From an uncultured virus (IMG/VR IMGVR_UViG_3300029953_000003) (Duplodnaviria > Heunggongvirae > Uroviricota > Caudoviricetes), in IMG/VR virus record IMGVR_UViG_3300029953_000003: a stretch of DNA of 64,000 bases; one strand, 5' to 3'. Shown in pieces: positions 3,811 through 64,000 of the stretch. The notes under the pieces are model-generated. The model made no database searches and was not told the DNA's origin. It saw only the letters and a program-made list of their open reading frames with translations. How positions within the stretch are numbered: position 1 is the stretch's first letter; every line of letters begins with the position of its first letter. The position numbers and the translations under genes were made by a program.

Positions 3811-3819
3811 GTCTTCCTC

Positions 3820-3878
3820 GCGAACGGCAGTGAGCTGAAGGGTCGAGGGCTCAGGCCCTGGCGGTGGCAGAGCCCCTG
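3820..3878 (+). repeat. palindromic element copy 2
   Basis: GCGAACGGCAGTGAGC..AGGGCTCAGGCCCT..GGCAGAGCCCC; supplies the stop codon of the BtpA-like ORF. Confidence 0.8.
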
Positions 3879-4980: not shown

Positions 4981-4981
4981 G

Positions 4982-5215
4982 TCAGCCTCCCATCCGGCTC
5001 GTGTCGAGTCCCGTCAGGCGCCCGATGGTGGCCAGGGCAGCTTTCGTCATGCGCAAAGAGCTGCTTCGTGAAGTGCCCTTCTGCAAGAGGGCTTCGGGGA
5101 CCTGGAGAGCAATCGCGGCGTTCTTTCGCGAGCTGTAGTTCTCCATGACGCGCTCGAGCGCGTCGGCGATCGTATTCGACTCTGACCTGAAGAGCTCGAC
5201 GAGCGTGTTTTTCAT
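4982..5215 (-). CDS. hypothetical protein
   Basis: GAGGA RBS; tightly packed with neighbours. Confidence 0.5.
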   Translation of the reverse strand: MKNTLVELFRSESNTIADALERVMENYSSRKNAAIALQVPEALLQKGTSRSSSLRMTKAALATIGRLTGLDTSRMGG

Positions 5216-5314
5216 GTTACGTCCTCGTCATGCAACGTCCGCGCGCGTTGTCATCGACAAACGAGATCCTTCGGAGCTCGATTCGCAGGACGCTCGTCGC
5301 GTTCACGTCGGCGC

Positions 5315-6130: not shown

Positions 6131-6411
6131 GACAGCTCTCCCTTCTCGGGACGAGGAGTCAGGGTCACGCCTTCTCGTCTCGCGATTTCGAGGAGCCCGA
6201 GACGGAGCGCCTCTACCGCGATGTTCTGCCACGCGGGTCGCATCGCGTCGGTCCTGACTGGAGAAGCCTCCCTGAGCTCGTTGATCATCCGAAGCATGTG
6301 CCTCGGGACGCTCAAGTTTCTCGCCTTCGGCGATTCGCTCGCCGAATCGGACGTTGCCTGGCGCTTGCGCGCGGGCTTCTTCGCGGTTGCTCTCTCCATG
6401 ATGTCTACCAT
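6127..6411 (-). CDS. small ribbon-helix-helix-like DNA-binding protein
   Basis: disordered basic N-terminus followed by RNLSVP-helix-helix; ATGA-coupled to PP2C. Confidence 0.45.
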   Translation of the reverse strand: MVDIMERATAKKPARKRQATSDSASESPKARNLSVPRHMLRMINELREASPVRTDAMRPAWQNIAVEALRLGLLEIARREGVTLTPRPEKGELS

Positions 6412-6438
6412 AGTCGCTTGCCCGCGAACGCGCAAGAT

Positions 6439-6491
6439 GTTACGGGGTAGGTTACGGTGTTCGTAACAGTCGGCGTAACGAAGAGCGTAAC
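6439..6491. promoter_or_regulatory. array of GTTACG/CGTAAC hexamers with ~12-bp spacing between divergent genes
   Basis: GTTACG at 6439 and 6451; CGTAAC at 6462, 6474 and 6486. Confidence 0.65.
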
Positions 6492-6508
6492 AAAGCGAGA
6501 ATGTAGCC

Positions 6509-7246
6509 GTGTTCGATTCTGAGAATCTTCGTTTCGATGAAAGCGATGCGTTGGCGCGGGTCGTGCAGGAGGATCCTGGCATGAACGACTTTCAGACCAC
6601 GGGCCCGATGCTCCTCCAGGTTCCCGCGCTCGACGTTCGCACCCGCAACGCGGTGATCGCTCACACGACGGCCGGGTGCTTCGACCCCACGATGACGGAG
6701 AAGAAGGCTCTCCTGGCGGGGCGTGCGGTCGCGCGCCTGGCCATCGGCGCGAAGCGCCTCGGGCCTCGGCAGGCGGAGGCGTGTGACACGCTGGTCGCCC
6801 AGGTGCTCCGTGCTCGCGGAAACGCGGCTCGCTACATGGCGGCCCCCGGATACGCGCCGTCCCTCCCGGCGCAGCAGGAGTCGCTCAGCTATGCGCCGGC
6901 GCAGGTCATGCCCGGCTACGCGCCGGCGCAGGTCATGTCGCAGGCTGCATCGGGCCTCAGCCCTCGTCAGGAGGGGATCCTCGTCCGGATCGAGCAGATC
7001 CTCACCATGATCCTGGCGCTCCTCATGCGGCGGGCGCCCGGCGTGTCAGTCGACGCGACATCGCTCTCGAGCCAGGCGAGTCACGGAGCGCTGGGGGGTG
7101 TCAGCTCGGCCTACCAGCTCCCGTCGGCTTCGAACGGTCTGGTTTCGTGGTCGCCCTCCGCGGCAACGGCCAACGACTACGCCCCCGCGCCTTCCGCGGC
7201 CCCGCAGCTCGCGAGCGGTTCGCGCTACGCCATGGTGCGCACGTGA
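6509..7246 (+). CDS. hypothetical protein with YAPAQVM tandem repeat
   Basis: long ORF; 27-bp tandem duplication near 6888-6938. Confidence 0.6.
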   Translation: MFDSENLRFDESDALARVVQEDPGMNDFQTTGPMLLQVPALDVRTRNAVIAHTTAGCFDPTMTEKKALLAGRAVARLAIGAKRLGPRQAEACDTLVAQVLRARGNAARYMAAPGYAPSLPAQQESLSYAPAQVMPGYAPAQVMSQAASGLSPRQEGILVRIEQILTMILALLMRRAPGVSVDATSLSSQASHGALGGVSSAYQLPSASNGLVSWSPSAATANDYAPAPSAAPQLASGSRYAMVRT

Positions 7247-7434
7247 TCCCGGCGGCAACCAAGACGGCCGCGGTGGAGCTCGACGAGCGCAGCCTTCGCG
7301 TCCTCGATACGGCCGCGGTCGCGCTCAAGGCGTGGATGCTCTCAGGAAAGCTTCCGGACGTGTCGTGGATGAGCGAGCAGGACTGGGCGTTTGCGGAAAA
7401 GTTCTTCGAAGGATCGAAAGACGATGACAACTGA
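7243..7434 (+). CDS. hypothetical protein
   Basis: GTGA overlap with upstream stop. Confidence 0.45.
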   Translation: MIPAATKTAAVELDERSLRVLDTAAVALKAWMLSGKLPDVSWMSEQDWAFAEKFFEGSKDDDN

Positions 7435-8563
7435 AGATTGTGCGGTCGTCGATGCCGCTGACTACTCGCGCGACAGTGCGCCATCCGAGGTGCAGAGCGT
7501 GTGCGGCGCGTGCGGGGGCCTCGGGAAGCTCCGGGTCATGGACGACGACGGCAAGCGCCGCGCTTCCGACGGCTGGCGGAAGTGCCTCGACTGCAACGGA
7601 ACGGGACAGGTACTCGACGGCGCCGCGACGGATGACGGCGCAGTCGGCGCGGCCGAGGGCGCAAAATCTCTCTCCAGCGAACGCAGTGAGCCCGGGGTCC
7701 AGGGCCCAGGCCCTGGCGCGGGGGTCGGGGGCGCGCAGCCCCCGAGCGGTCTCGAGCTCGTCCGCCTGGCGGTCGAGGACGGCTGCCTCGAGAACCAGGC
7801 AGCGCTGGACATGGTGCCCAGGACGACGTGGATCGCCACGGTGACCCCGGATCGTAGGAGCCCCGGCGGCCTTACCCGCCGCTTCTGGAACAAGGGGATG
7901 CGCGGCTGGTACGAGCGCCCTGGCGTGGTCGTGCCGGGTGACGTTCTCGAGATGGCCGGAGATCTCAGGAACCCGCGGAAAAAATTCGCTGGCCGCGATC
8001 GTGTGTACTGGTTTGTGACGAGTGTCTCCGCGGCATGCCTTGAGGTCGTGTCGCTTGGAACGACCCCGCCTGGGCGCAGGCGGATTGAACGCGTTCGCGA
8101 CGAGGTTGCGCGCGCGTACGCCAAGGATGTCTCGGACGTCGTAGGCGCAGTGGTAGTGCACGAGGGGCGAGTTCTTTTGACGCAGCGCCCCGCCGGCAAG
8201 ACGTTCGCGTTCGCCTGGGAGTTTCCCGGCGGGAAGGTCGAGCCTGAAGAGGAGCCGCGCGAAGCGCTCCGGCGTGAGCTTGGAGAAGAGATCGAGTGCG
8301 CTGACGCCGAGGTTGAGGAGCTCCCGATCTGGTCGGGGCACGTCCACTCGGCCGGCGTGACGGTGTCGTTCTACCTGGCGACGCTTCGTGGCGTGCCCGT
8401 GCCGAAGGAGGGCCAAGGCATCGGTTGGTTCGCGCCCGAGGAGCTCGAGAGGCAGACCCTCACGCCGGGCAACCAAGTCGCCTTGCCCGCCGTGCTCGGG
8501 TACCTGACCGCGCGCTGCTTGCCGGTCGTCCGCAGCAGCTTGATCGATCTCGATATTCCTTAG
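7424..8563 (+). CDS. DnaJ-type Zn finger / unknown domain / MutT-like Nudix hydrolase fusion
   Basis: CGACGGLG..CLDCNGTG; Nudix box WEFPGGKVEPEEEPREALRRELGEE; in-frame repeat insertion. Confidence 0.85.
   Translation: MTTEDCAVVDAADYSRDSAPSEVQSVCGACGGLGKLRVMDDDGKRRASDGWRKCLDCNGTGQVLDGAATDDGAVGAAEGAKSLSSERSEPGVQGPGPGAGVGGAQPPSGLELVRLAVEDGCLENQAALDMVPRTTWIATVTPDRRSPGGLTRRFWNKGMRGWYERPGVVVPGDVLEMAGDLRNPRKKFAGRDRVYWFVTSVSAACLEVVSLGTTPPGRRRIERVRDEVARAYAKDVSDVVGAVVVHEGRVLLTQRPAGKTFAFAWEFPGGKVEPEEEPREALRRELGEEIECADAEVEELPIWSGHVHSAGVTVSFYLATLRGVPVPKEGQGIGWFAPEELERQTLTPGNQVALPAVLGYLTARCLPVVRSSLIDLDIP
7677..7744 (+). repeat. palindromic element copy 3, in frame in the Nudix gene
   Basis: encodes SERSEPGVQGPGPGAGVGGAQPP. 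Confidence 0.9.
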
Positions 8564-18475: not shown

Positions 18476-18743
18476 TCAGATGGCGACTGTGGCGTCGGTC
18501 TTGGACTCGGGACGGCAGCGCAAGATCAGGTAGACGTTGCCGGCGTCCACGATCTCGGGATCGATCGCATGAGTCACTGCATCGACTTCCCACCAGCGGG
18601 AAAGGAGACCCGCCCACACTTCAGCGCGCTCCGCGTACTGAGCCTCCGTGAGGTCGGCCGAAAAGGTCACCAGGCCGGTGCCCCACGAGAGCACCTCGAA
18701 CGTCACGCCACCGACCACCCGCGTCTGCTTCGTCGTGCCCATG
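18476..18743 (-). CDS. hypothetical protein
   Basis: MGTTKQ.. directly behind the operator/promoter. Confidence 0.55.
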
Positions 18744-18774
18744 GCTGCCAAGCTAGATCCGCGAGCGCGATTCG

Positions 18775-18792
18775 TCAAGATTGTTTTCTTGA
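18775..18792. promoter_or_regulatory. operator TCAAGA TTGTTT TCTTGA with TTGACG-17-TAGCTT promoter (minus strand)
   Basis: ~35 bp nearly identical to 19353-19388. Confidence 0.75.
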
Positions 18793-18819
18793 AACTGCTA
18801 CGCAGCACATCTGCAAGCG

Positions 18820-19293: not shown

Positions 19294-19361
19294 GCTCTGC
19301 TCTTTTTCTGTGCGTTCTCCGTGGCCCACGACCGATAAGCTAAACTCGCGGACGCGATTCG

Positions 19362-19379
19362 TCAAGATTGTTTTCTTGA
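19362..19379. promoter_or_regulatory. operator TCAAGA TTGTTT TCTTGA with TTGACG-17-TAGCTT promoter (minus strand)
   Basis: repeat of the motif. Confidence 0.75.
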
Positions 19380-19662
19380 AAATGCTACAGCGCGCTTTGC
19401 GCCTCAGGATCGTGGGCCGCGTGCTAGCGCGACAATTACAGATAGCGCGACAAGACGAACCTCTCAGGATGCGTCTTGAGAGCGCTCACCTCTGCGCCCA
19501 TCGCGACAAGTCCGACATCCACATCGTCCCACGTCAATCCGGTCGCGACCACCAGCTCGCCCGCCGTCCACGTCCGGTTGCTCGCGAGCGCGTTGCGCAC
19601 CTTCGCCTCAGCATCCGGATCGGGCTGCACCGGCGGGCGCACGAACACACGAGACACGTCCG

Positions 19663-21135: not shown

Positions 21136-21180
21136 TTTCTTGGAGTGTCCTAGGACAGCCGCACGCCGTACTCGTTCCCC

Positions 21181-21247
21181 GCGAACATCGTGAGCCGCGG
21201 GGTCCAGGGCCCAGGCCCTGGCGGGGGTGTCGGGGGCGGAGCCCCTG
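21181..21247 (+). repeat. palindromic element copy 7 (6 bp from the dnaE stop)
   Basis: GCGAACATCGTGAGCCGCGGGGTCCAGGGCCCAGGCCCTGGCGGGGGTGTCGGGGGCGGAGCCCCTG. Confidence 0.95.
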
Positions 21248-21253
21248 ACGCTT

Positions 21254-24523
<3,270 letters not shown>

Positions 24524-24555
24524 GGCGAAGGCTCCTGTAGAAGTCCAGAGAGCGT

Positions 24556-24624
24556 CAGGGGCTTCGCCCCCGACACCCCCACCAGGGCCAAAGGGCCCTG
24601 GACCCTACGGCTCACGATGTTCGC
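24556..24624 (-). repeat. palindromic element copy 12, upstream of dnaE
   Basis: reverse complement of the consensus. Confidence 0.9.
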
Positions 24625-24746
24625 AAAGGAGAGGGCCGCCGTCTTATGGGTCTTTTGCACTTTTCACGTGCGATGGGGCGCCTTCGAAGTGTCTGTGTCA
24701 TCCATGCGATCGCGATCAGTCTCCACGCTTGCCGCCTTTTTGTGCG

Positions 24747-34995: not shown

Positions 34996-35304
34996 CGTCA
35001 GTCATCCTCTAGGCATTTTGCCATCATCCGACCATCCTGCGCTCTTGCGCGCGCCTGCGCCGTCTACCGCGCCGCGCGCCAACTCCCGCCCGGACGGAGA
35101 CGCCCTTCGTCACCACGACAATAGGCCGTTCGTCCCGCCACGCCCGCTTGAACGCGGCGCGGAACGATGCGTCTCGCAGCTCGTCGCCGAGCCATGCGCC
35201 GGCGGCAGCCTGCCTACGTGCGGTCTTGCTCACTTCGGTCATTCTGCACTTATAGCCCATCCGGCACAGGCCGGTCTTCACCGTGTCGCTTTCGCTCGTC
35301 TCCT

Positions 35305-35374
35305 GCGAACATCGTGAGCTGAAGGGTCCAGGGCCCTTTGGCCCTGGCGGGGGTGCAGGGGGCGGAGCCCCCTG
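35305..35374 (+). repeat. palindromic element copy 13 (just past the DinG stop)
   Basis: consensus match. Confidence 0.9.
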
Positions 35375-35384
35375 CGGGTCTCGC

Positions 35385-38300
35385 TCACTCTCTACCGAGA
35401 AAGTCCCCGATGTCGTTGATGTTCTGCATTGGCTCGCCCATGCCCAGCGCGTCGACGACCCGCGCGCCGTACTTGGACTCATCGGTGAGGCGCCGGTCGA
35501 GAATGACGACGACGCCGCGATCGTCTTTGGCCCGAACGAGCCGGCCTACGCCCTGGCGGAGGGCGATGATGGCCTTGGGGAGCATATAGTCGTAGAAGAT
35601 GTTGATCTTCCGTGCGCGAGGGTCGCGCTTTGGGTTGAGGAGCTCGCGGGCAGCGGCCTCTTCAAGCCAGCTCACGATCGGGTCGTCCTTGGGAGGGAAG
35701 GGAAGCCGGTCGATGACGACGCAGCTCAGGCTCCGGCCTGGCACGTCGACGCCGGCCCAGAAGCTCTTGGTGCCCAAAAGGACGCTGGATTCGTCCTCTT
35801 TGAAGCGGCGGATCAGGTGCTGGCGCGGGGCTTCGCCCTGAACGAGGATCGTGTAGGTCGAGCCCAACTTTTCCCGAACGAGCTCGGCGACGATGTCGAG
35901 GCGCTTTTTTGACGCGAAGAGGCCGAGGGTGCGGCCGCGAGATTGCTCGATCGACTGGACGACGAGCTTGCCGATCCCGTTCTCGAAAGCGCGCAGATCC
36001 TTCGGGTCAGGGGAGTTCCACGGGATCACGAGCCTGGACTGCTTCTTCAGGTCGAAGGGGCTTGAGACGATGAGCCGAGAGGCTCTCCAGGCGCCGACCG
36101 AGCGAACGAAGAAATCGAGTCGCCCGCCGCCGCCGTTGGGGACGACCGTCGACAGCGTTGCGCTGGTCGCGATGACGCTGGCGAAGTTCTCCGAGTCGAA
36201 GAGCAGCCGTTGCAGGTGCGGGCCCACTTCGATCGGGAGCGAGCCCAGGGTGACGGATTTGGTGTCTCCCGCGTGCTCGACGAAGTAGACGCTTTTTGTG
36301 GACTCGGTCAGGTTGATCACCCGCTCGATGTCGTCCGCGAGCTTTCTGGCGCGCCCTGCGGCGTTGACCAGCATGTCGAGCTCGGGCCCCGAGCCACCTT
36401 CGCGTCCTTCTTCCTCGCGCTTCTCGTCGTCCTTGGTGCGAAACTCGTCGGCCGCCCCGTCGTACAGATTCGCCGTACGCCGCAAGAGACCCGTGAGGTT
36501 CGACGGGTCGACCATCTTGGGCCCCTTGATCCGGAGTCTGTTCTCGGATGCGCGCACGACCGCGTCGATGGCGTTCGGCTCGGCGAACGCCGGCCTGTCG
36601 TCCCAGCGCACATCGACGACGCCGTCGCTGTCGACGACAACGTTTTGACTTTGTGGCGAATCTTCCTTCTTCGGCTCCTGAAAGAAGACTTCCTCGACCT
36701 GCATGAAGAAATCCGACCCTGCCTGGTTGAGGCCCATCTGGAGATCCTCGTCGATCACGCCGAGGCGTGTCTTGGCGCGCCGGGCGCCCGAAGGCGCGAG
36801 GAGGCGACCCGCATAGCGGACCGCGCCCTGGGTGAGGCGCAGGCCCAAGAACTCGCGGGCGATGTCGGCCGCCTCGTGGCAGTTGTGGACCACGACGTTC
36901 TCCACCAGGTAGGTGTGCGTTGACTCGATCTCCAGGTTGTAGACGACACCCCCTGGACACGCGCCACCAAAGGTGCCGTCGGGCGTCGGCTCGATGACCT
37001 CCACGTCGAGCACCGATGAGAACCATCGCTTTTCGGCGCCTGGGCTGACATCGCCACGGTCTCGGATCACGCGATCGGCCATCTTCTTGGCCTGGTGGTA
37101 GCCCTTGAAGTGGCGGGGGGAACGAAGCGCGAATGCAGGGACCCAGCCGCGCTCAGTGAGAAAGGGATGCCACGGCGTGCACACCAACACGACGTCATGA
37201 TCGCCGTCTCCGTCGCCCTCGACACGTACTCGAACCAGGCTGCTAGGCCGACTCGATAGCACCTGGCAGACAGTGGCAAGAACAAAGCTCCGCGTCGTCT
37301 CGTTGTACGACCGCACCTTGTCGCCTACGCAAACGCGCTCGATCGGAACGCGGCCGACCATCGTCCCGGCGACGAAGCACTCGTCGAGGATCGCGATGTC
37401 GAACGGGGGCAGCACATTCCCAAGGGTCAAGTGCGCGAAGAGTAGGTGGTAGTTGGTCACCATGATGTTCGCGTCGTGCCACGCCGTCTTGGCCTTCTCG
37501 GAGTAGCAGGAGCCGTGGTTCGGGCAGCTCTTTCCCAAGCAGTCGTCCGCCGAGACGCTCACCCTTGGCTTCAGGGCGCGGCCGAGCTCAAAGGGCAGCT
37601 CCGAAAGGTCGCCCGTCCTGGTCTCCCTCGACCAGCGCCGGATCTCGGTCCAGAGCCGAGTCAGCTCTGCGTCGCGAAACGGCTGGCGCTCGAGCTCCGC
37701 GTTCGTCCCCTCGATTCGGTCAAGGCAGGCGTACTGCTGTCGGCCCTTCGCGATCGCTGCCGTGAACTCCCATGGCAACACCGTCTGGAGCCGCGGGACG
37801 TCGCTCGAGATCAACTGCGACTGTAGTGCGATGTTCGCGGTCACAATCAGCGCCCTGGGTGGTCCATCGTTTTCCGCAGAGGGCGACCGCGCTGCCATGA
37901 GCTCATCGGCCCGCTGCGTCACGTGGTAGATCGCCGGCACCATGTAGGCGACCGACTTGCCCGTGTTGTGCGTCACCGTGAGATCGTCGAGGAGGTAGCG
38001 ACCATCCCCATCGAGCGAGAAGCCGTAGTAGCGTCCAGTCTCTCCGTGTCGCTCGACGCGAAACGAGAAAAAGTGCCGCTGCATGAAGTCCCATCCTGCG
38101 GATGGGTGGTTGTACTGGAACAGCACAAATTGCCGCTTGAGCGCTTCGGGCCACTCGAGCCACGCTCGCACAGTGACATCGACGACGCTGTCACCGCAGC
38201 CGTACGACTGAACCCGCTGAAGCGTCTTCAAAGTATCGACGTACCAGGCCGTCGCGGCATCCCCATTGGCGGTGATGTCCTCCTGCTGGCGCGACGTGCG

Positions 38301-38690
38301 CGCGCGCAGGAGCGTCAGCACATGGTCCAGGTTCACCCGCCACGGGCGAAGCCGCGCCAGGTCCGGCACGATGTCCACCAGCTCGGCCTCGCCTCGCACG
38401 AGCTCGACGACCCGACGAGGCTCGCGGCTGGGTCCTGCAAGCAGGTCGCCGACGACGATGTCCTCGACTCGCTTCGTGTTCTCAAAGAACCTGAGCGACC
38501 CGTCGAACATCAGGATCCCTTGCCCCGCCGCATGGCACCCCGTCGGCGCCTCGATCATCGCCGGCCGGCGATCCAAGATCGCCTGATCCACCGCGCGCGC
38601 CATCTCGACCTGCCCCTCGCGCGGCACGTACCCCGCGTAAGCCTGGCCAAGGTAGCCGTCAGGGCCAAAAACATCGTCGATGTAGGTCAC
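35385..38690 (-). CDS. dinG: DinG/YoaA-family ATP-dependent helicase with two inteins
   Basis: EAPTG/TGKS, Fe-S cysteines, DE/CH, TSATL, FWAGVDVPG, RQGVGRLVR. Confidence 0.93.
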   Translation of the reverse strand: MTYIDDVFGPDGYLGQAYAGYVPREGQVEMARAVDQAILDRRPAMIEAPTGCHAAGQGILMFDGSLRFFENTKRVEDIVVGDLLAGPSREPRRVVELVRGEAELVDIVPDLARLRPWRVNLDHVLTLLRARTSRQQEDITANGDAATAWYVDTLKTLQRVQSYGCGDSVVDVTVRAWLEWPEALKRQFVLFQYNHPSAGWDFMQRHFFSFRVERHGETGRYYGFSLDGDGRYLLDDLTVTHNTGKSVAYMVPAIYHVTQRADELMAARSPSAENDGPPRALIVTANIALQSQLISSDVPRLQTVLPWEFTAAIAKGRQQYACLDRIEGTNAELERQPFRDAELTRLWTEIRRWSRETRTGDLSELPFELGRALKPRVSVSADDCLGKSCPNHGSCYSEKAKTAWHDANIMVTNYHLLFAHLTLGNVLPPFDIAILDECFVAGTMVGRVPIERVCVGDKVRSYNETTRSFVLATVCQVLSSRPSSLVRVRVEGDGDGDHDVVLVCTPWHPFLTERGWVPAFALRSPRHFKGYHQAKKMADRVIRDRGDVSPGAEKRWFSSVLDVEVIEPTPDGTFGGACPGGVVYNLEIESTHTYLVENVVVHNCHEAADIAREFLGLRLTQGAVRYAGRLLAPSGARRAKTRLGVIDEDLQMGLNQAGSDFFMQVEEVFFQEPKKEDSPQSQNVVVDSDGVVDVRWDDRPAFAEPNAIDAVVRASENRLRIKGPKMVDPSNLTGLLRRTANLYDGAADEFRTKDDEKREEEGREGGSGPELDMLVNAAGRARKLADDIERVINLTESTKSVYFVEHAGDTKSVTLGSLPIEVGPHLQRLLFDSENFASVIATSATLSTVVPNGGGGRLDFFVRSVGAWRASRLIVSSPFDLKKQSRLVIPWNSPDPKDLRAFENGIGKLVVQSIEQSRGRTLGLFASKKRLDIVAELVREKLGSTYTILVQGEAPRQHLIRRFKEDESSVLLGTKSFWAGVDVPGRSLSCVVIDRLPFPPKDDPIVSWLEEAAARELLNPKRDPRARKINIFYDYMLPKAIIALRQGVGRLVRAKDDRGVVVILDRRLTDESKYGARVVDALGMGEPMQNINDIGDFLGRE
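36882..37379 (-). mobile_element. mini-intein (166 aa) in DinG Walker B
   Basis: ILDE|CFVAGT..CTPWHPF..VYNLEIESTHTYLVENVVVHN|CHE. Confidence 0.92.
37965..38537 (-). mobile_element. mini-intein (191 aa) in DinG Walker A
   Basis: APTG|CHAAGQGILMFDG..VNLDHVL..YYGFSLDGDGRYLLDDLTVTHN|TGKS. Confidence 0.92.
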
Positions 38691-38741
38691 GTAGATCCTT
38701 CTGTGGAAAGATGCTTGGGGGCTGCCAGCACCCAACTGGGG

Positions 38742-46541: not shown

Positions 46542-46697
46542 GGCGGCTCTTTCTCCTGGGTCTTGTCCCCGGCGAGAATGAGCTTAGGTCCTGCCGGTCC
46601 TACTGTCAAGTTCTCGTTTTGGCTTCCTGCGTCACATCTTTCACGTTCGCCTCTTCTGCCCTGTGGCTCAACGGCTCAACGGCAAAGCTATTTCCTC

Positions 46698-46764
46698 GCG
46701 AACATCGTGAGCCGCGGGGTCCAGGGCCCAGGCCCTGGCGGGGGTGCCGGGGGCGGAGCCCCTG
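46698..46764 (+). repeat. palindromic element copy 14
   Basis: near-identical to copy 7. Confidence 0.95.
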
Positions 46765-47766
46765 GCGCTCTCCCGCTACGGCGAGAGCCCGAAGCGGGCG
46801 GCGTGACGTCGGACGACCCTGGCCTGGTAGGCGCGGGCGGCGGCGACATCGGCGGCGGTGAGGTCGCTGGGGAGGAGCATGAAGTCGCCGGCGGGGCAGC
46901 CGACGATGGCGGCGCCCGCGACGAGCCACCGAAGGGGGAGCTTCCAGAGCGGCTCAGGAAGCTTGTGGTTGGCGTTCATGGTCGACCGTTTACACGTTGC
47001 AACGCGTCAAGAGTAGCACGCGCCCGAGGCCCGAGAACCATCGCGACGCGCGGCGTCGGCGCCGGGGCAGAGCGTTTCGTGGGCAGCGACCGCGAGCGCC
47101 TGGGATGGCCCGGCGGTTCTGTGGGCATCGGGCGTTTTATGGGCACAGCCGCCGCGCCGTCTCCTCCCTCGTCCACTCCCAAGCCGAAGCTGTGCCCGCA
47201 CTGCAAGCCGGCGTGGAGCGAGACGCCGCCGAAAAGCCCTGCACGGCCAGCCGGCACGATGCGCCACCACTCGAAATCGCGGTAGAGTCAAGTCTAATCG
47301 GAAGAAACTTTTTACAGTGTCCTTACATAAGGGACGTAAGAGCCGAGCAACGTCGTGAAACGTACGCGACGTACACGTGGCGCAAAGCGCCATGGCCGCA
47401 GAGCTTGCGGTGGGCAAGTTTTTTTTTGCCAAAAAGCTTGCCCGCCTTGGCGGTAGTGCTTTAGGTGTTAGCTCGGGCTCGGACCTGTCTGAACCCACAA
47501 AGGAGACCGCGCGCGCTCGTTCAAGCACGCGCGGCAACAGAAGTAGCGCTCGCTTGGACGAGCACGCGCCTTGCCTTAGAAAGTACGGCTGCATCAATGC
47601 GGAACAGCCGTGGGGTGTCGGACATCTATGCCCGCCACCGGCAACAATCCACCGTCAAAGATCTGACAGGGGACACGCTGACGGCATGCCAAGCGAGCGC
47701 TAACTTGCTAACGGTATGCTACCACACAACAAACCGATGCCGATACTGGCACGGGAAGACGAAGCC

Positions 47767-48120
47767 ATGACTACTCCTCAAACGTTCTCCGTAAGCGTCC
47801 TGCTTCATAAGGACGGGGACGCTTGGGTTGCGCAATGCATCGAACGCGATGTAGCTGCGCAAGGGCGCACCGCCGACGAAGCCAAGCAGCGTTTTCTCAA
47901 TACGCTCGCGGACCAAATCTTGCTCGACATGGCGACCAACAAGGAGCCTCTCGTGCATCTCAACCCGGCGCCGAGCCGATATGCGATGAGGAACGAGTCT
48001 TCCGGGCCGACGCTGCCGACGTACGTGCCGGTTACGAAGGAACCTCGTATGCTCGTCCTGGTTACACAGCGGGGCGAAACTCGCGGGACCGCTACGTTCC
48101 TCGAAGAAGCAGCGGCATGA
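47767..48120 (+). CDS. HicB-like antitoxin
   Basis: LLHKDGDAWVAQCIERDVAAQGRTADEAKQRF HicB partial RNase H-fold pattern. Confidence 0.75.
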   Translation: MTTPQTFSVSVLLHKDGDAWVAQCIERDVAAQGRTADEAKQRFLNTLADQILLDMATNKEPLVHLNPAPSRYAMRNESSGPTLPTYVPVTKEPRMLVLVTQRGETRGTATFLEEAAA

Positions 48121-49128: not shown

Positions 49129-49301
49129 TGCCAGGCAGGCGCTCGCCTGCAAGGTATGCTACAATACAACAGACCGCTCTATGACTGGGGCGGGAAGACG
49201 AAGCCATGACTACTCCTCAAACGTTCTCCGTGGGCGTCCTGTCTCACAAGGATGACGCTTGGGTTACACAGCGCCCCGAACGCGACATGAGGAGGGGGTA
49301 G
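49129..49301 (+). pseudogene. duplicated hicB promoter/leader with a 31-codon truncated hicB copy
   Basis: similar to 47688-47850; reads MTTPQTFSVGVLSHKDDAWVTQRPERDMRRG*. Confidence 0.75.
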
Positions 49302-51561: not shown

Positions 51562-52377
51562 TCACGCGCCAGGCCGGCGCCAACGGCGAGCTTGCCGGTG
51601 AGCGGCACGTCGACGGGCGCAGCGTGTAGGCGGCGAGCCCGGCGCCTGCCCGTGTCGCCCCACCACTGCTCGCCGTGGCGCCTGAAGCCCGCCGCGGCGG
51701 CTGGTCGGCGGCTGTGCTCTCTTCGTGAAAGCCAAGGGCCCGCCGGCGTCGAACGTCGTCAGGCCGCCGCAAACCAGTGCAAACCCGGCCGCTGACGAGC
51801 TTGCCCGGCGATTGAAGAAGTTGCCCGGCGATTGATGGCGGCAACGGAATCGCCAGGCAAAGCCGCTTAGCGGCAGCGAGCTGACACCAGCGAAATCGAA
51901 TGCGTAGTAAGAGTAGCCGTGATCGAATCCACGAAAGATGGACGATGAATCGTAGTAGCCGTGGTCGAATCCACGAAAGATGGACGAGGAATCGTAGAGC
52001 CATCCGTAGAGAAGCTTACCGGAGAGCCCAATCGCCATGCTCTGCCAGGACGCCGGCGCAGTTGACGGCCAGTGTCTCTGGATTGCGTAGCACTCAGGAG
52101 GCTCGCACCCGAACGTCGCGCGGACGTAGGCGCGGTATGCCGGCCACGGCTCGTCCTGAACAGGGGCAAGTTGCGCGAGCTCGGCACGAACAAAGAACTC
52201 GCGCTCGAGCGCACGATCGAGCCCCTCGAGCGTGGGCGTAATCTGCGCGAAGATCCTGTCTGTGGTCGGCGTCCCGCCATAGTAGGGCCATGCAGGTGCG
52301 CCTTTTCGAAGCTCGTCGGCGTGGTAGAGTCGACGTCCATTCGGCTGTCCATCCGGCTTGATGTCTTCGCAATTCAT
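51562..52377 (-). CDS. hypothetical protein with 14-aa tandem duplication
   Basis: ATGA-coupled to the ParA-like gene. Confidence 0.5.
   Translation of the reverse strand: MNCEDIKPDGQPNGRRLYHADELRKGAPAWPYYGGTPTTDRIFAQITPTLEGLDRALEREFFVRAELAQLAPVQDEPWPAYRAYVRATFGCEPPECYAIQRHWPSTAPASWQSMAIGLSGKLLYGWLYDSSSIFRGFDHGYYDSSSIFRGFDHGYSYYAFDFAGVSSLPLSGFAWRFRCRHQSPGNFFNRRASSSAAGFALVCGGLTTFDAGGPLAFTKRAQPPTSRRGGLQAPRRAVVGRHGQAPGSPPTRCARRRAAHRQARRWRRPGA
51913..51996. repeat. 42-bp tandem duplication (YDSSSIFRGFDHGY x2)
   Basis: two units differing at 2 positions. Confidence 0.9.
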
Positions 52378-58821: not shown

Positions 58822-59550
58822 TCAACCGAGTTTATTAAAACGCGCGACAAGACTCTCGTCCGTATCAAACCCGATGCCTACACGATCCAGGCTTCGCGCA
58901 GCACGAAGCGTGGACCCGCTTCCTGCCGTAGGATCCAGGACCGTGTCACCGCGATCCGTATACGTTAGAATGAACCAAGACGGCAGCCCTTCAGGTTTTT
59001 GGGTCGGATGACATCTTTCTGGATCGTCGTTGTTCACGACGTCAATGTCGATGACCGTCGTCGGGTACCGAAGAGTCGTGCCTTTGTTCGATTGTGTGCG
59101 TCGCTGCCCGCCATAGTTCGTAGAGTAGTTGACTCGATCTGCGAAGTTCATCGGCTTGTGGCCGTCTGTCATCTGTGGGCGATAGACTGGCGCTTTGTCC
59201 CAGAACACGATCACGTCCTCGTGGTTGCGCATGGGCCGCTTCTTTGCATTCAGGTGGCCACTCGCTTTGTTCTTGCGCCACACCATGTCGTAGCGAAACA
59301 TTGCGAGATTGCTACATACTACAAGCGACGCAAAAGGCTGGATCGCGGTGAATACGAATACGCAGTCGGGTCTCCATACACGATTGAGCTCGCTCCAAAG
59401 CGGCCCCATCGGCACGACCTTGTCCCACTCATTCTGAGTTTTGCCGTAAGGAAGATCGAGAAAAACGAGCGCTACTGACCCCTTCCGTACACGCGCCAGA
59501 CCATCGAAACATTTCAGTGCATGGTACCCGCAATCGATCTCTTCGCTCAT
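58822..59550 (-). CDS. N4-C/N6-A DNA methyltransferase (beta class)
   Basis: DLPY..HPTQKP..VLDPTAGSGST. Confidence 0.92.
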   Translation of the reverse strand: MSEEIDCGYHALKCFDGLARVRKGSVALVFLDLPYGKTQNEWDKVVPMGPLWSELNRVWRPDCVFVFTAIQPFASLVVCSNLAMFRYDMVWRKNKASGHLNAKKRPMRNHEDVIVFWDKAPVYRPQMTDGHKPMNFADRVNYSTNYGGQRRTQSNKGTTLRYPTTVIDIDVVNNDDPERCHPTQKPEGLPSWFILTYTDRGDTVLDPTAGSGSTLRAARSLDRVGIGFDTDESLVARFNKLG

Positions 59551-59788
59551 GTTGCTGTCCAGCCGATTGCACTATCCCAAAATCGTCACGGCACTCAAGA
59601 TGTACTCCATCGGCGGCTCCCTCTCCCGGCGACGCAAACCGGGAGAGGGAGAGCGGCTGGCGCACGCCACGCGTAGAGTACCATCCTGCGCATGTAGCGT
59701 CTTGCCGCTTACCCGCGGTTCCAGACGGGTTCCGCCAGAGTCTATAAGCGATCCGTACCCCGGCGATGGTCAAAAATCAAGCCTCGTC

Positions 59789-62700
59789 CTATGCGACAAC
59801 GCGCACGTAGCTTGCGTGAATGCGGCGCTCTCCGTGGGCCTTGAAGCGAGCGACCAGAAAATCCCCATCGAGCTCGGAGACGACGCCGATCCCCCACGAT
59901 CGATGAGCGACCCTCGCTCCTTCCCTCATCTCGCCAGGCGCCGCCGCCTCATCGACGCGCCCTTGCGCTCCTCCCCCGCGAATATCGTGAGCCGCGGGGT
60001 CCAGGGCCAAGGCCCTGGCGGGGGCACCAGGGGCAGAGCCCCCGGTCGGGGGTGCAGGGGGAGGAGCCCCCTGCTTCTGCGCCGGCGCGACGCCGGTGGA
60101 GCGGCCGCGCTTCACCGCGTCCGCCGGCAGATCCGCGAGGAAGCGCGAGGGGACAGAGGCGCGGGTTTGGCCGTAGAGCGTGCGCATGCGGGCCCACGAG
60201 ATCCAGAGCTTTTCGCGCGCGCGGGTCACGGCGACGTACGCCAGGCGGCGCTCCTCGTCTTCGTCGCAGTCCTCCTCGGCCCCCGCATTCTGCTCACGCA
60301 CGTAGGGGAAGACGCCTTCCTCCATCCCGGTGAGCATCACCTCCTTGAACTCGAGCCCCTTGGCCGCGTGCACGGTCATCAGAGTAACGCCGGTCGAGCC
60401 GGCTTCTTTCTCCTCGCCCGAGTCAAGCGCGACGCGCTCCAGGTACCCCGAGAGCGTCGCGACGCGCTTCTCCTGCGCGGTCTCCTCCTCGTACCGCAGC
60501 ATCGTTCCCGAGAGCTCGCGGAGCACGTCCACGCGCGCGTCGCCGTCCTCGCTTTTGCGAAGCATGGCCACGTAGCCGGTCCGCTCGAGCGCGCGCGCCA
60601 AGACCATCGTCGGCCCAGGACCGCCCGGGGGCTGCGCGCCCCCGACCCCTGCGCCAGGCCCTGGGACCTCGACCCCGGAGAGGGCCCCCTGCATGGCGTA
60701 GCGAATCAGATCGTCGACGATGGCGTGGAAGGCCATCACGGCGTCGTAGCCGCGCTTGCCCAAGGCCGCGCGGCCAGTGGTCGCATCATCACGAAGAAAG
60801 GCCGCCGCCTCGAAGAGCGAAGAGCTCAGGTCAGCGGCGACGCGCGCGAGGCGCTCCGCGGTAGTCTCGCCGACACCACGAGCGGGCACGTTGAGCACAC
60901 GCAGGAAGTCGACGTCGCTCTGGGGGTTGGCGGCGAGACGAAGGTAGGACAGGGCATCCTTGATCTCGGTGCGTTCATAGAAACGCTGGCCTCCGAGAAC
61001 GCGGTAGGCGATCTTGGCCGAGCGAAGAGCCTCCTCGATCGCGCGTGACTGGGCGTGGACACGGTAGAGCACCGCGAGCTCCGAAAGCGCGATCCCTCTC
61101 GAGAGCGCGTCGGCGATGCGCCGGGCGACGAACGACCCCTCGTCGTCCTCGTTCGCGCAGGTGATCACGTACACCGGGTCACCCGTCGGTTCGGCCGTCC
61201 ATAGCGTCTTCGCCTGCCGCCCCCGTGCCTTCGCAATCAGCGAGCTGGCCGCCCGCACCACGTTCCCCGTGCTCCGGTAGTTCTGCTCGAGCTTGACGAT
61301 CTTTGCGCCCGGGTGGTCCTTGATGAAGGCATCGAAGATCGCTGGCACGGCCCCGCGCCACGTGTAGATGCTGTTCTTGACGATGACGCCGTTGGCCACG
61401 TAGCAGTGATCTTCTTCCACGTCGAGCGAGTACACATAGCCCGTATACGGACGCACCATGACCGCATTGACAGGAACCCACAGACACGGAGCCCCAAAAC
61501 CCGCAGGGGGCTCTGCCCCCTGCGCCCCCGCCAGGGCCATAGGCCCTGGACCCTTCAGCTCACGACGTTCGCCAGGAGAAACATCGGCGTCTCGTCTTTG
61601 ATCTCCTGCCGAAGATCCTCCACTGGAGCCCCACAGCGGTGTGCTGCTGCAAGACAGCCCTGCGCTCGGCAGCGACTTTTTGTCGTCTCCAGAATACGAG
61701 CTCGTCCAGGCTCCAGGATGCGCAGGTGCCACGCCTCCTTTTTGCCCTTCGCGGCCCACGGAGAGGGGAGCTCGATCAGCTCCACCAGATCTTCCCTGGT
61801 CAGCCTGTCCACGATCCCCGGATTCACGCCTCGCTTCAAAACCGGACCTCTCGCCGATTCGCAGAGGACCCCCAGCGCGATCGCCGTGAGCGGGTGCGTT
61901 TTCTCGCCATTGTTCGGTGTTTTCATCGCGTTCGTCTTTTCGTTGTGCGGAAGGGTCCGTGGCCCTTGGCCTCGGCATGGACGTAGAGAGCGGAACCCCT
62001 TGGGGATCCGGGATCGGCACCAAGAGATCGCCGTGCGCGATGCGGCCGCGGAGGATGGTGTCGAGATCTTCGCCGGAGACCTCGAACGTGCCGATCTTGG
62101 GGTTAGACGCCCACATGCACACGAGTTTGTGGTTGCCGGTGATGGGCACCGAGCAGCCGCCGGCGACGAGCGTGTACACTTTTCCGCTGAACGGGCGCCG
62201 CGCGATCGTGAAGCGCCGGCCCACCGGCGACAGCGTGCGAGTCGCCTCGCTCCAGCCGCGGACGAGATCCGCGTTTGGATCGAGCGCCTCGACGGGGACC
62301 CAGGTTCCATCCTCGACCTCGATTTGGACGCCGGGCGGGTGGCACTGGTCGTCGTCACCAACCACGCACAGATTGTTCGACTCCTCCGAAAGAGCGCGCG
62401 CGAGCCGGTACTGCACCTCGTTGACGTCCTGAAACTCGTCGACCAGGACGTGTCGAAACATGCGGCGAATCGCGCGCCCTGCATCCGAGATGCTCGTCTT
62501 CCCTCCCGCGGCGCCACCCGTCGGAGCCGGAGGCCGCTTCAAATCGCTGCGCTCGCTGGGGGTAGCAGGAGCCTGGAAAAGCCCGCCCGTCTGCCCAGGC
62601 TTGAGAGCTTCGGCGCGCTTTGCAGTGGCGGCTGCGTAGCGTTCCCGTCGAACGTCAGGAGACGGTTGGACCACCTGCGCCACCAAGGACGACGGCTCGC

Positions 62701-63586
62701 ACATCGCGAGCACCTTGAGCAGCAGGTCGTCGAAGTCAACGGCGTTGGCCTCCGCAAGCTTCTCCTGGTAGGCCACGTAGAGATCGCGAAAAGCAACGTC
62801 GCCCCTGGAAAGGCATCCGTCAAAGATCTCGGGGCCTTTCCCTGACTGCTTGAGGCTAGAAATACGGGCGAGAGCGCGGTCCGGAGACACCGCGTCGCCA
62901 AGATCGAGCTGCTTGGCGGCGCGGCGAAGAACGCGCTTTTGATCGGTGGTGTCGTAGATCGAAAAGCCTGGACGAAGACCCGCCGCCTGGTGAAAACGGC
63001 GCAAGAGCCTGGCGCAGATGGCGTGGAACGTACCGACCCAAAGATCCTTGGAGGTGGGCCCAAGAGCTTTGTCGAATCGGGCGCGCATCTCCGCGGCCGC
63101 CTTGTTCGTGAAGGTGACCGCGAGAATCGCGAACGTCGGCACCGCTTCGGCGATCACCAGGTGCGCCACGCGATGAACCAGGACGCGCGTCTTCCCGACA
63201 CCGGCGCCTGCGAGCATGAGGAAGGGCCCGTTGACATGCGCGACGGCTTCCCGCTGCGCATCGTTCAGGTCTGCGTCGCCCAGCGCCTCGGGGAGCTCAT
63301 CGAACTGCCCCGTGTAGTCGGTCTTCGAAAGCGGGAAGCTTGGTGTCTCCTCGGCCCCAACGCCCCCCGCCAGGGCCAGTGAATCTGGACCCTGCGACTC
63401 ACGATGTTCGGTCAAAAAAGAACTCGCGTCTGAATCGACATGCGCGACCGTGCCGCCAACGGCGTTGCTACCGATCGACTGCCCATCGATCGCACCGGCG
63501 ATCTCGGCTTGAAGCTCCGCCTCGATGGATTCCGCAAGAGCCAAACGGTCCTCGTCGGAGGCGTCATCATAGTCCTGGGCGTTCAT
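59789..63586 (-). CDS. uvrD: UvrD/PcrA helicase with intein and repeat insertions
   Basis: AGAGVGKT, VTFTNKAA, VDEFQD, VGDDDQ/SIY.WRGA, QNYRS, TVHAAKGLEF, EERRLAYVAVTRA, C-terminal Tudor-like domain. Confidence 0.95.
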   Translation of the reverse strand: MNAQDYDDASDEDRLALAESIEAELQAEIAGAIDGQSIGSNAVGGTVAHVDSDASSFLTEHRESQGPDSLALAGGVGAEETPSFPLSKTDYTGQFDELPEALGDADLNDAQREAVAHVNGPFLMLAGAGVGKTRVLVHRVAHLVIAEAVPTFAILAVTFTNKAAAEMRARFDKALGPTSKDLWVGTFHAICARLLRRFHQAAGLRPGFSIYDTTDQKRVLRRAAKQLDLGDAVSPDRALARISSLKQSGKGPEIFDGCLSRGDVAFRDLYVAYQEKLAEANAVDFDDLLLKVLAMCEPSSLVAQVVQPSPDVRRERYAAATAKRAEALKPGQTGGLFQAPATPSERSDLKRPPAPTGGAAGGKTSISDAGRAIRRMFRHVLVDEFQDVNEVQYRLARALSEESNNLCVVGDDDQCHPPGVQIEVEDGTWVPVEALDPNADLVRGWSEATRTLSPVGRRFTIARRPFSGKVYTLVAGGCSVPITGNHKLVCMWASNPKIGTFEVSGEDLDTILRGRIAHGDLLVPIPDPQGVPLSTSMPRPRATDPSAQRKDERDENTEQWRENAPAHGDRAGGPLRIGERSGFEARRESGDRGQADQGRSGGADRAPLSVGREGQKGGVAPAHPGAWTSSYSGDDKKSLPSAGLSCSSTPLWGSSGGSSAGDQRRDADVSPGERRELKGPGPMALAGAQGAEPPAGFGAPCLWVPVNAVMVRPYTGYVYSLDVEEDHCYVANGVIVKNSIYTWRGAVPAIFDAFIKDHPGAKIVKLEQNYRSTGNVVRAASSLIAKARGRQAKTLWTAEPTGDPVYVITCANEDDEGSFVARRIADALSRGIALSELAVLYRVHAQSRAIEEALRSAKIAYRVLGGQRFYERTEIKDALSYLRLAANPQSDVDFLRVLNVPARGVGETTAERLARVAADLSSSLFEAAAFLRDDATTGRAALGKRGYDAVMAFHAIVDDLIRYAMQGALSGVEVPGPGAGVGGAQPPGGPGPTMVLARALERTGYVAMLRKSEDGDARVDVLRELSGTMLRYEEETAQEKRVATLSGYLERVALDSGEEKEAGSTGVTLMTVHAAKGLEFKEVMLTGMEEGVFPYVREQNAGAEEDCDEDEERRLAYVAVTRAREKLWISWARMRTLYGQTRASVPSRFLADLPADAVKRGRSTGVAPAQKQGAPPPAPPTGGSAPGAPARALALDPAAHDIRGGGAQGRVDEAAAPGEMREGARVAHRSWGIGVVSELDGDFLVARFKAHGERRIHASYVRVVA
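59978..60073 (+). repeat. palindromic element copy 16 (duplicated right hairpin), in frame in uvrD
   Basis: encodes QGAPPPAPPTGGSAPGAPARALALDPAAHDIR. Confidence 0.9.
60624..60677 (-). repeat. palindromic element copy 17 (partial), in frame in uvrD
   Basis: encodes GVEVPGPGAGVGGAQPPG. Confidence 0.75.
61490..61572 (-). repeat. palindromic element copy 18, inside the intein
   Basis: encodes ERRELKGPGPMALAGAQGAEPPAGFGA in the intein frame; supplies the stop of the nested ORF. Confidence 0.9.
61555..61926 (-). CDS. nested 123-aa wHTH-like protein in an alternate frame within the intein
   Basis: MKTPNNGEKTHPLTAIALGVLCESARGPVLKRGVNPGIVDRLTREDLVELIELPSPW..LRILEPGRARI. Confidence 0.55.
   Translation of the reverse strand: MKTPNNGEKTHPLTAIALGVLCESARGPVLKRGVNPGIVDRLTREDLVELIELPSPWAAKGKKEAWHLRILEPGRARILETTKSRCRAQGCLAAAHRCGAPVEDLRQEIKDETPMFLLANVVS
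63347..63410 (-). repeat. palindromic element (degenerate), in frame in the uvrD N-terminal extension
   Basis: encodes EHRESQGPDSLALAGGVGAEE. Confidence 0.75.
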
Positions 63587-63673
63587 CTCAAGAATGACCT
63601 TCTGCCAGGTACGGTGAAGCGTCAAGCCTCAAGCGGGTGGAACGGCACGAGCTCGGGCCCAAGGCACGAACGC

Positions 63674-63706
63674 AAAAAAAGAGCCCACGGTTTCCCGAGG
63701 GGCTCT
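63674..63706 (-). terminator. intrinsic terminator (minus strand)
   Basis: AGAGCCC stem followed by T7 on the minus strand. Confidence 0.6.
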
Positions 63707-63825
63707 GGAAGAGCGTTACCGCACTCCGCGAGTGGCAGGGCAAAAGCTATCGCATCGCCGGCATCGTGTCAGGCTGAAGAATGCTTCAGCCCCCCCCCTC
63801 CCAGGCTCCGTGGCTGCCGGAATAG

Positions 63826-63858
63826 AAAAAGCCCCCGTATCCTGGAATACGGGGGCTT
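63826..63858 (-). terminator. intrinsic terminator (minus strand)
   Basis: AAGCCCCCGTAT..ATACGGGGGCTT followed by a T-run on the minus strand. Confidence 0.7.
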
Positions 63859-64000
63859 GGGCGACACCATCCGCGCCCGCCGAGCGGTCCCCGCTTTCGC
63901 GGCCTGCCTCGACGGACCACGACCCTCACAGAGCGGAGGATGGCCCTTCCCGCCTGAACAGCGGGACGTCGCGCTGGGCTTGCTGTCCCAACTATGCGCT

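Follow-up and report, generated by a model that had tools for sequence, protein, structure and literature searches.

Can an intein carry a gene that is not its own homing endonuclease? On the current view, the only gene that an intein houses is that of its own homing endonuclease. The question is raised by a UvrD/PcrA-like helicase gene in a 64,000-nucleotide (nt) stretch of DNA from an uncultured virus of the Caudoviricetes (IMG/VR record IMGVR_UViG_3300029953_000003); the whole of this stretch is referred to here as the window. An earlier, sequence-only reading of the window had placed a whole gene, in another frame, inside the UvrD intein, at the position where the homing endonuclease should be. 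The intein coordinates, its motif strings and the nested open reading frame (ORF) at 61926-61555, encoding 123 amino acids (aa), are all as that reading gave them. The analysis points, with a probability of about 0.6, to a non-canonical intein that arose by secondary invasion of a mini-intein by a repeat-bounded cassette carrying a winged-helix gene. The features on which the argument turns are listed below; P0168 and P0169 are two orthologous helicases that carry mini-inteins.

59789..63586, minus strand: UvrD/PcrA-like helicase gene, 1265 aa from the ATG at 63586, the start assigned by gene callers (product P0003); the stop-to-start ORF extends to 63625.
61373..62344, minus strand: intein of 324 aa, between GDDDQ and SIYTWRGA in helicase motif III.
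62012..62344, minus strand: N-terminal splicing lobe, intein aa 1-111, which aligns with the P0169 and P0168 mini-inteins.
61481..62011, minus strand: inserted segment, intein aa 112-288 (177 aa), rich in Gly, Ala, Arg, Ser and Pro in the helicase frame; 4-6 residues in the orthologs.
61373..61480, minus strand: C-terminal splicing lobe, intein aa 289-324, which aligns with P0169 and P0168.
61555..61926, minus strand: nested ORF P0002, 123 aa plus TGA, one base off the helicase frame; a winged-helix protein of an unnamed family.
61947..62004, plus strand: upstream, decayed repeat copy (nhmmer E 2.8e-4; consensus base at 45/72 positions, with 7 bases inserted).
61499..61580, minus strand: downstream repeat copy (nhmmer E 7.3e-20; 59/72 positions identical to the consensus).

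The host gene is a helicase by Pfam (UvrD-helicase, E 8e-65; UvrD_C, E 7.6e-66), and its product is 41% identical to Salmonella DNA helicase II, with which all helicase motifs align. It is a single ORF of 1265-1278 aa, not split in two, and the G+C content at third codon positions (GC3) of the exteins is strongly coding-like (0.76 overall and 0.8-0.97 in most local windows). The intein starts at Cys1 with CHPPG, has TGNH at aa 69-72 (block B, of the Thr-x-x-His type) and closes with VYSLDV...VIVKN, ending VYSLDVEEDHCYVANGVIVKN, with a terminal Asn and the Ser of SIYTWRGA at position +1. The same Cys1 and TGNH-type blocks are present in the inteins of P0168, P0169 and a more distant helicase, P0004. 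The NCBIfam model of the intein C-terminus (TIGR01443, intein_Cterm) scored 24.3 bits against a cut-off of 15.6; Pfam Intein_splicing (PF14890) scored 30.4 bits (E 4e-7), below its gathering score of 35.8, and its match is split by the intein centre. The Salmonella protein reads ...VGDDDQ(251)SIYGWRGA... without interruption, and both window exteins are colinear with it and meet flush at Q251|S252. Since both flanks align flush with an intein-free helicase, the boundaries of the intein are exact. Other searches added little: an AlphaFold2 model of the intein as a single sequence had a mean pLDDT (predicted score in the local distance difference test) of 38.9 and was uninformative for lobes and centre alike, the best match of the intein in a sequence search of the PDB was PI-PkoII at only E 0.39, and Rfam gave a single sub-threshold match over 59000-64000.

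The relatives of the helicase show what the intein looks like elsewhere. A search with the C-extein returned two clearly closest proteins, P0168 (942 aa, 65% identity) and P0169 (1300 aa, 64% identity); the remaining matches were at most 49% identical, and those that were named came mostly from Polyangiaceae. In both close relatives the GDDDQ|C site is likewise occupied by an intein, in each case a plain mini-intein, of 150 aa in P0168 and 154 aa in P0169. The N-terminal lobe of the window intein is identical to theirs at 49 of 107 positions (P0169) and 47 of 108 (P0168), or 44-46%, and the C-terminal lobe at 24 and 21 of 36 positions, respectively, or 58-67%. Opposite intein aa 112-288 of the window stand only AEGG in P0168 and AGDDGG in P0169. 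In P0004 the intein occupies the same site and has an unrelated centre of ~150 aa. Because the orthologous mini-inteins have 4-6 residues at this place, the simplest reading of the window's centre is a later, secondary insertion of ~0.5 kilobase (kb) into an empty mini-intein loop, and not a decayed endonuclease. The nested gene thus lies in the loop that an endonuclease usually occupies, in keeping with the earlier claim, but the mini-inteins of the relatives show that this site held none.

Two further differences between these genes were seen. The Walker A motif of P0169 is interrupted by a second intein (GAGSGK|C...HN|T), with Pfam domains of the LAGLIDADG type (PF05204, PF05203); the window gene is without one there. 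The window gene has an insert of ~60 aa of its own at 62456-62680 (UvrD aa ~315-386 of the 1278-aa ORF), missing from both orthologs; its G+C content is flat across codon positions, and the peptide that it encodes (…QPSPDVRRER…SERSDLKRPPAPTGGAAGG…) has the look of an inverted pair of the repeat in an advanced state of decay.

The product of the nested ORF is a genuine member of a conserved protein family. Searched against 1.84 billion representative proteins, P0002 had 180 matches at E<=1e-3 and 13 at E<=1e-10, the best apart from itself being P0019 (208 aa, 64% identity, E 4e-29). Free-standing proteins of 75-110 aa predominate among these relatives, and several come from jumbo phages. Among the 150 matches that were listed, the relatives are mostly free-standing proteins of 70-140 aa that match residues 3-80 of P0002; the family alignment consists of P0002 and 59 of these 150, and its consensus reads PLNGxKTHPL...NPGV..RL.RE.LVE.V.LPSPY..HKG....HL.IT.AGR. 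P0002 retains N35 and R41, which are invariant in the 60 sequences, together with all nine columns conserved at >=90%, and its Met lines up with the Met of four free-standing homologs in the 30 alignment rows shown. A hidden Markov model (HMM) of the family, built without P0002, gave it 113.5 bits, which ranks it 42nd of 60, the median of the training sequences (n=59) being 119.4.

The family is poorly covered by the reference collections. Pfam gave no match for P0002, and two of the 60 family members matched PadR weakly (best E 0.0031); none of the 60 matched a PHROG, NCBIfam had no relevant match for the eight members examined, and nuclease families were absent from the Pfam, PHROGs and NCBIfam results for P0002 and its relatives. 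The fold is predicted with confidence. When modelled by AlphaFold2 with the alignment, aa 11-80 of P0002 had pLDDT values of 93-97 (means of 10-residue blocks) and the order helix-helix-strand-strand-helix, and every listed structural match of the model was a winged-helix regulator. The best match by VIA-align was 5h3r_A, MarR on its operator (Z 8.3, root-mean-square deviation 2.4 Å over 67 residues), and the best Foldseek match had an E value of 1.1e-2; both are modest scores for a common fold. P0002 is a probable DNA-binding protein. The clusters nearest to it in the ESM Atlas are unnamed hypothetical proteins (scores 0.90-0.91). The sequence-only reading had likened the ORF to small winged-helix-like ORFs elsewhere in the window; it was right as to the fold, but no similar ORF was found in the window, where the next best tblastn match had an E value of 0.015 and the family HMM matched only the nested frame among 906 stop-to-stop ORFs (next best E 0.28).

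Sixteen phage records contain free-standing family members annotated 'hypothetical protein'; the phages infect Caulobacter and Brevundimonas, and their genomes are without exception 300-357 kb in size (gp309 of CcrBL9 is an example). Members also occur in three large IMG/VR contigs, one free, one beside a ParB-like gene and an integrase, and one within a long protein. Scans of viral contigs with P0002, P0019 or the C-extein as query returned no relatives, and a scan of species genomes with alignment A2 returned one weak match of 18 residues (L001). On the IMG/VR contig L002 (128.6 kb), at 3357-7985, the family domain was seen within P0042, a protein of ~1090 aa whose C-terminus resembles a tyrosine recombinase by reading; on L004 a family member stands between ParB-like and integrase-like genes.

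The coding signal changes frame within the intein. Over the whole helicase gene the G+C content at the three codon positions is 0.71/0.51/0.76. Helicase-frame GC3 is 0.80-0.93 in the intein lobes and goes down to 0.40-0.50 at 61960-61691, where the third-position G+C content of the nested frame is 0.73-0.83. Log2 odds per codon, scored for each frame from the window's own codon usage, follow the same course: for the helicase frame they are +0.57 in the N-terminal lobe (62344-61985) and +0.71 in the C-terminal lobe (61495-61373), whereas the intein centre scores −0.35 in the helicase frame and +0.21 in the nested one. In a comparison of the window's three longest genes, such a switch of coding frame was restricted to the intein centre. 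The helicase frame has no stop across the nested ORF, as had been noticed from the letters alone; the third frame has six, and the nested frame is open for 320 codons. What the helicase frame encodes in the centre (RENAPAHGDRAGG...SSGGSSAG) is of low complexity: in intein aa 124-288 the residues G, R, S, A, P, D, E and Q make up 79% and hydrophobic residues 12%, a composition that suggests that the read-through loop would be disordered. For this helicase-frame centre there was no Pfam match and no LAGLIDADG/HNH signal on either strand, and no homolog among proteins of 90-289 aa, or among those of 702-2237 aa save its own cluster; the plus-strand ORFs across the intein gave no nuclease family by Pfam. 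Overall, the two frames differ in the way that the sequence-only reading had anticipated for a real nested gene: free-standing homologs, GC3 and codon usage all go with the nested frame, and the intein-frame middle has neither homologs nor the remains of a LAGLIDADG/HNH endonuclease.

The edges of the insert are formed by a repeat that is dispersed over the window. It is GC-rich and ~85 nt long, with a conserved tail (CGCGAACATCGTGAGC) and then two hairpins, and nhmmer found 21 matches in the 64 kb, spanning 2770-63418 (for example 21172-21254, 46689-46769 and 35297-35377). The two copies that flank the nested gene are inverted, with their tails inward, and coincide with the two ends of the stretch that the orthologs do not have. 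The tail of the upstream copy faces the nested ATG and continues weakly to about 61923; the gene occupies the 366 nt between the copies, its ATG abutting the decayed tail. At the other end, the tail of the downstream copy supplies the last five codons (ANVVS) and the TGA (61557-61555), which lies inside the copy at 61580..61499, the origin that the earlier reading had given for this stop codon. A nested ORF of 372 nt without a frame break stands beside a strongly decayed upstream repeat copy. With terminal inverted repeats that belong to a multi-copy family, the insert is an inverted-repeat-bounded cassette, similar in this respect to a miniature inverted-repeat transposable element (MITE) or to a doublet of repetitive extragenic palindromes forming hairpins (REPIN).

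The repeat has also entered other coding sequences. Two tails-inward inverted pairs are present in the DnaE ORF (21254-24604, minus strand), one at 22326-22518 with a 30-nt spacer and one at 23360-23574 with a 73-nt spacer, and they lie between Pfam domains and are translated in frame. In UvrD, single copies are in frame at 63350-63418, 60625-60677 and 59969-60045, and none of these is found in P0168 or P0169. Each orientation of the repeat is translated in one preferred frame, the peptide being (G)E[RH]RE..GP....A(L/W)(A/P)G..G.E in one (recurring as ERxELKGPGP..ALAG..GAE) and.PARA.ALDPAAHD.RE in the other, and the helicase frame runs through the two intein copies in just these preferred frames. 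The intein is thus one tolerated site among several, which qualifies the idea of the sequence-only reading that it acts as a safe harbour for a cargo gene. That idea agrees with the family membership of the nested gene and with the non-homologous in-frame centre, but the repeat is tolerated in frame in the non-intein parts of UvrD and in DnaE as well. The intein is also the only repeat site in the window with a gene-sized insert.

Position relative to neighbouring genes gives a further indication of how the repeat behaves. In at least three solo copies (3811, 9829, 53207) GAGGA or GGAGG comes immediately after the tail, and then the start ATG of an ORF that looks coding; the repeat is thus often found a short way upstream of a gene. 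The nested gene is preceded in this manner by the decayed copy, but the GGAG has been lost. Compared by eye, the spacers of the DnaE pairs show no similarity to the ends of the nested gene beyond the repeat tails, so that there is no direct sign that the empty DnaE pairs derive from an element bearing the winged-helix gene. The stop-to-stop ORF of DnaE shares its first codons with a repeat copy at 24552-24631, and the true DnaE start is for this reason probably downstream of 24604.

The same arrangement was recovered from independent material. In a cluster of 17 proteins, the nine that are full-length, which come from ENA, JGI and Logan assemblies, have the same helicase frame through the centre. 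The metagenome contig L005 is identical over 7,443 nt, and the contig L006 is 99.4% identical, with five substitutions in the gene; the only one in the intein, at 61524, lies in the repeat and outside the nested ORF. The contig that encodes P0019 was not one of the two loci returned by the metagenome scan. The protein cluster has two variable positions in the intein and none in the nested ORF. In each of the 24 peat metagenome runs listed, two thirds or more of the sampled words are present; eight of these runs may be the source of the DNA, and no RNA run was listed among the 24. A candidate for an insert-free allele, a joint from 61300 to 62713 in the low-depth, fragmentary contigs obtained from the reads of four runs ('skips 1412'), was rejected: its sides of 30-32 nt have 85% likeness, and it probably stems from the helicase motifs of other organisms.

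These observations can be accommodated in the following scheme. A UvrD-like helicase gene would have carried a plain mini-intein of the class-1 type in motif III. A cassette of ~0.5 kb would then have entered the short surface loop between the splicing lobes, the usual endonuclease site, which was presumably empty in this lineage. The cassette would have consisted of two inverted ~85-nt repeat copies enclosing a complete winged-helix gene that starts at an ATG of its own and is shifted by one base against the helicase, and may have arrived as a unit, either by transposition or by recombination between repeat copies. With no stop codon in the way in the helicase frame, the ribosome would read through the cassette and translate it as a low-complexity loop of ~177 aa; stops in that frame may have been absent by luck or may have been purged. 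The lobes would still fold and splice, and the loop would be discarded with the joining of GDDDQ to SIYTWRGA, to give GDDDQSIYTWRGA. The nested gene has kept all its family-conserved residues and a coding-like codon pattern. Both the splicing of the intein and the mode of insertion are what the sequence suggests. The odds are about even that independent, low-level translation of P0002 from ATG 61926 persists.

A number of observations weigh against this scheme, and several of them would fit an alternative that differs from it on translation alone: the anatomy is the same, the cassette is fairly recent, and the winged-helix ORF is untranslated and intact only for want of time. We regard this alternative as possible though doubtful. 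No Shine-Dalgarno-like GGAG is present 5-12 nt before ATG 61926 (GAAAAGACGAACGCG-ATG), and a promoter scan returned 0 sites, with no sigma-70-like match for this ATG; the plus strand has two terminator-like sites, no more than shuffled sequence would be expected to give. Ribosomes that translate the surrounding ORF pass over the start codon in another frame, and the original 3' end of the gene has probably been replaced by the repeat, as the last ~14 codons and the stop derive from it. The codon score of the nested frame is only weakly positive and below that of the host coding sequence (+0.21 against +0.57 to +0.71). With the nested protein fixed and the window's codon usage applied, the helicase frame was open in only 4.5% of 20,000 simulations (mean 2.9 stops), a figure that speaks for more than chance and is at the same time compatible with survivorship alone; in the window's ordinary genes the same relative frame is open in 87 of 358 123-codon windows. 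Nor is there population variation to reveal selection, the single nucleotide polymorphism in the intein among the copies found being too few to gauge a frame-specific effect. A silent ORF is harder to reconcile with the retention of all family-conserved residues in P0002 and with its typical profile score. The decay of the upstream repeat (45/72, 7 inserted bases) is likewise beyond what an unselected neighbouring ORF should tolerate, although this contrast is soft, as the upstream copy may have arrived already degenerate. Finally, the closest relative of P0002, P0019, is 59-64% identical, so that the nested gene was not recently copied from a known near-identical source. Two other points bear on the insertion and on splicing and also count against the scheme: no target-site duplication was recognised on reading the cassette flanks, where no systematic search was made, nor was a transposase identified, none having been looked for, and the penultimate residue of the intein is Lys323, not His. 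This residue is Gly in P0168 and P0169 and Arg in P0004, and it varies among active inteins.

The Lys at this position is also what might be expected if the helicase copy were unneeded or non-functional, the intein not splicing, and the insertions tolerated damage; the single repeat copies at three further sites and the other window-specific insert, none of them in the orthologs, could be read in the same way. Such decay is very improbable in view of an intact ORF of 3.8 kb with strongly coding-like extein GC3, the alignment of all motifs with Salmonella UvrD, the preservation of frame by every repeat insertion, and five substitutions in the gene between two contigs. Still less probable is a winged-helix domain that was formerly in frame with the intein and was shifted out by two compensating events. 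The helicase frame is open on either side, and a +1/−1 pair in a dispensable region would look alike, but most of the 150 listed relatives are small and free-standing, no intein-fused form was recognised among the 22 relatives read (nine longer forms included), and the Met stands at the family's usual N-terminus; the loop of 4-6 residues in the orthologous inteins and the inverted repeat boundaries speak against it as well. That the nested frame is open by chance, or is an artefact of assembly, is hardly credible. Long spurious ORFs are common at 65% G+C, and the 320 open codons of the nested frame could be regarded as one of them, but a match to P0019 at E 4e-29, 180 matches in all and a confident predicted fold would not be expected of such a frame, and the same sequence is present in independent assemblies and in 24 runs.

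Invasion of a mini-intein by a repeat-bounded winged-helix cassette is the explanation that we prefer. An extension of it, which we consider unlikely, would make the insert a gene-bearing mobile form of the repeat family: the winged-helix protein, translated within the helicase message, would recognise the repeats, perhaps with a part in their mobilisation or regulation, and the DnaE pairs would be empty derivatives. If this were true, three layers of selfish DNA would be nested in one another (cassette in intein in helicase gene), with protein splicing as the buffer that makes room in a coding sequence for a gene-sized, out-of-frame cargo other than a nuclease.

The few out-of-frame or antisense ORFs that have been described in inteins are all nucleases serving the spread of the intein. 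The loop of the window mini-intein holds an intact gene without a nuclease signature, and the loop is empty in the closest orthologs found, P0168 and P0169. Provided that the nested gene is expressed, inteins could be neutral landing pads, where unrelated genes come to overlap those of conserved enzymes and the host protein pays nothing for it. Expression would also imply that overlapping genes can arise, and inteins diversify, by a route which annotation pipelines miss. The repeat family, which inserts in frame into DnaE and UvrD, merits a separate study.

Besides DnaE, the window encodes intein-bearing helicases, a flap endonuclease, a methylase, NUDIX, GmrSD and SocA proteins and many unknowns, with few PHROG matches. 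Another helicase, of 1118 aa (35385-38741, minus strand), has Helicase_C_2 and is a DNA helicase by PHROG; it has Hint matches at aa 69-168 (Hom_end_hint) and aa 460-541 (PT-HINT), probably carries two inteins, and has a codon-position profile that is in frame throughout. Other repeats in the window are two tandem 42-nt units at 51912-51995, 95% identical (family D15), and two direct repeats of two copies each (47745-47813 with 49184-49252, and 18737-18801 with 19324-19388). The copies of the latter are 65-69 nt long, 83-90% identical and 1.4 kb and 0.6 kb apart, near SocA/Panacea and GmrSD-like genes.

How does this locus compare with known systems? Dispersed short GC-rich palindromic repeats are known of which some copies lie within ORFs and are translated in a preferred frame and some form inverted pairs; the in-frame palindromic elements of Rickettsia are an example. 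The window repeat resembles these elements, and the DnaE pairs are likewise translated in frame. We know of no such palindromic repeat pair that has carried a gene into an intein.

A close parallel among inteins is that of the cyanobacterial DnaX, for which an out-of-frame LAGLIDADG homing endonuclease has been described and secondary invasion of a mini-intein proposed (bioRxiv 10.64898/2026.09.14.751524); the same preprint credits Gorbalenya 1998 for 'non-canonical inteins'. As far as the available part of that source goes, the two cases share a second ORF in another frame between the lobes, an open intein frame that encodes a low-confidence or disordered stretch, related mini-inteins without the ORF, and the same proposed route. 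The DnaX ORF differs in being a homing endonuclease able to drive the spread of the intein, with Shine-Dalgarno motifs, and in being under frame-specific purifying selection across 123 sequences, whereas the window ORF encodes a winged helix, has no nuclease signature and no Shine-Dalgarno motif, and is edged by inverted copies of a dispersed repeat. Non-canonical inteins of actinobacteriophages contain antisense LAGLIDADG or VSR-like ORFs and frame-3 ORFs that are endonuclease VII-like (bioRxiv 10.1101/2025.01.02.630785). They resemble the window intein in having a secondary ORF in the endonuclease region that annotation missed and an in-frame peptide without recognisable structure; the secondary ORFs described in the accessible text, unlike the one in the window, are all nucleases, and none is described there as repeat-flanked. 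A hidden, out-of-frame HNH endonuclease has been found inside the DNA methylase gene of phage ShiLan (PMC11855218). In the portion of that paper at hand it is, like the window ORF, an out-of-frame gene in an open host ORF, in a presumed tolerated loop and with no detectable ribosome-binding site, but the cargo is a nuclease and no intein is involved; in the window, the read-through peptide can, by prediction, be removed by splicing. In the 'fractured genes' reported in 2009, a free-standing endonuclease gene lies between the halves of a split intein (PMC2677866). To judge from the excerpt available, these too have a gene with its own start and stop at the endonuclease site of an intein, in genes for DNA synthesis and repair enzymes, mainly of phages; the host gene there consists of two ORFs joined by trans-splicing, with a nuclease as cargo, whereas the window intein is in one piece.

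Full-text literature searches, which did not extend to subscription journals, brought up no case of an intein with a gene other than a nuclease gene inside it. The architecture itself is already known, out-of-frame and antisense ORFs in inteins having been described for homing endonucleases and other nucleases. The window locus differs from these cases in a cargo without a nuclease signature, in boundaries formed by inverted repeats, and in a genome whose repeat colonises coding sequences.

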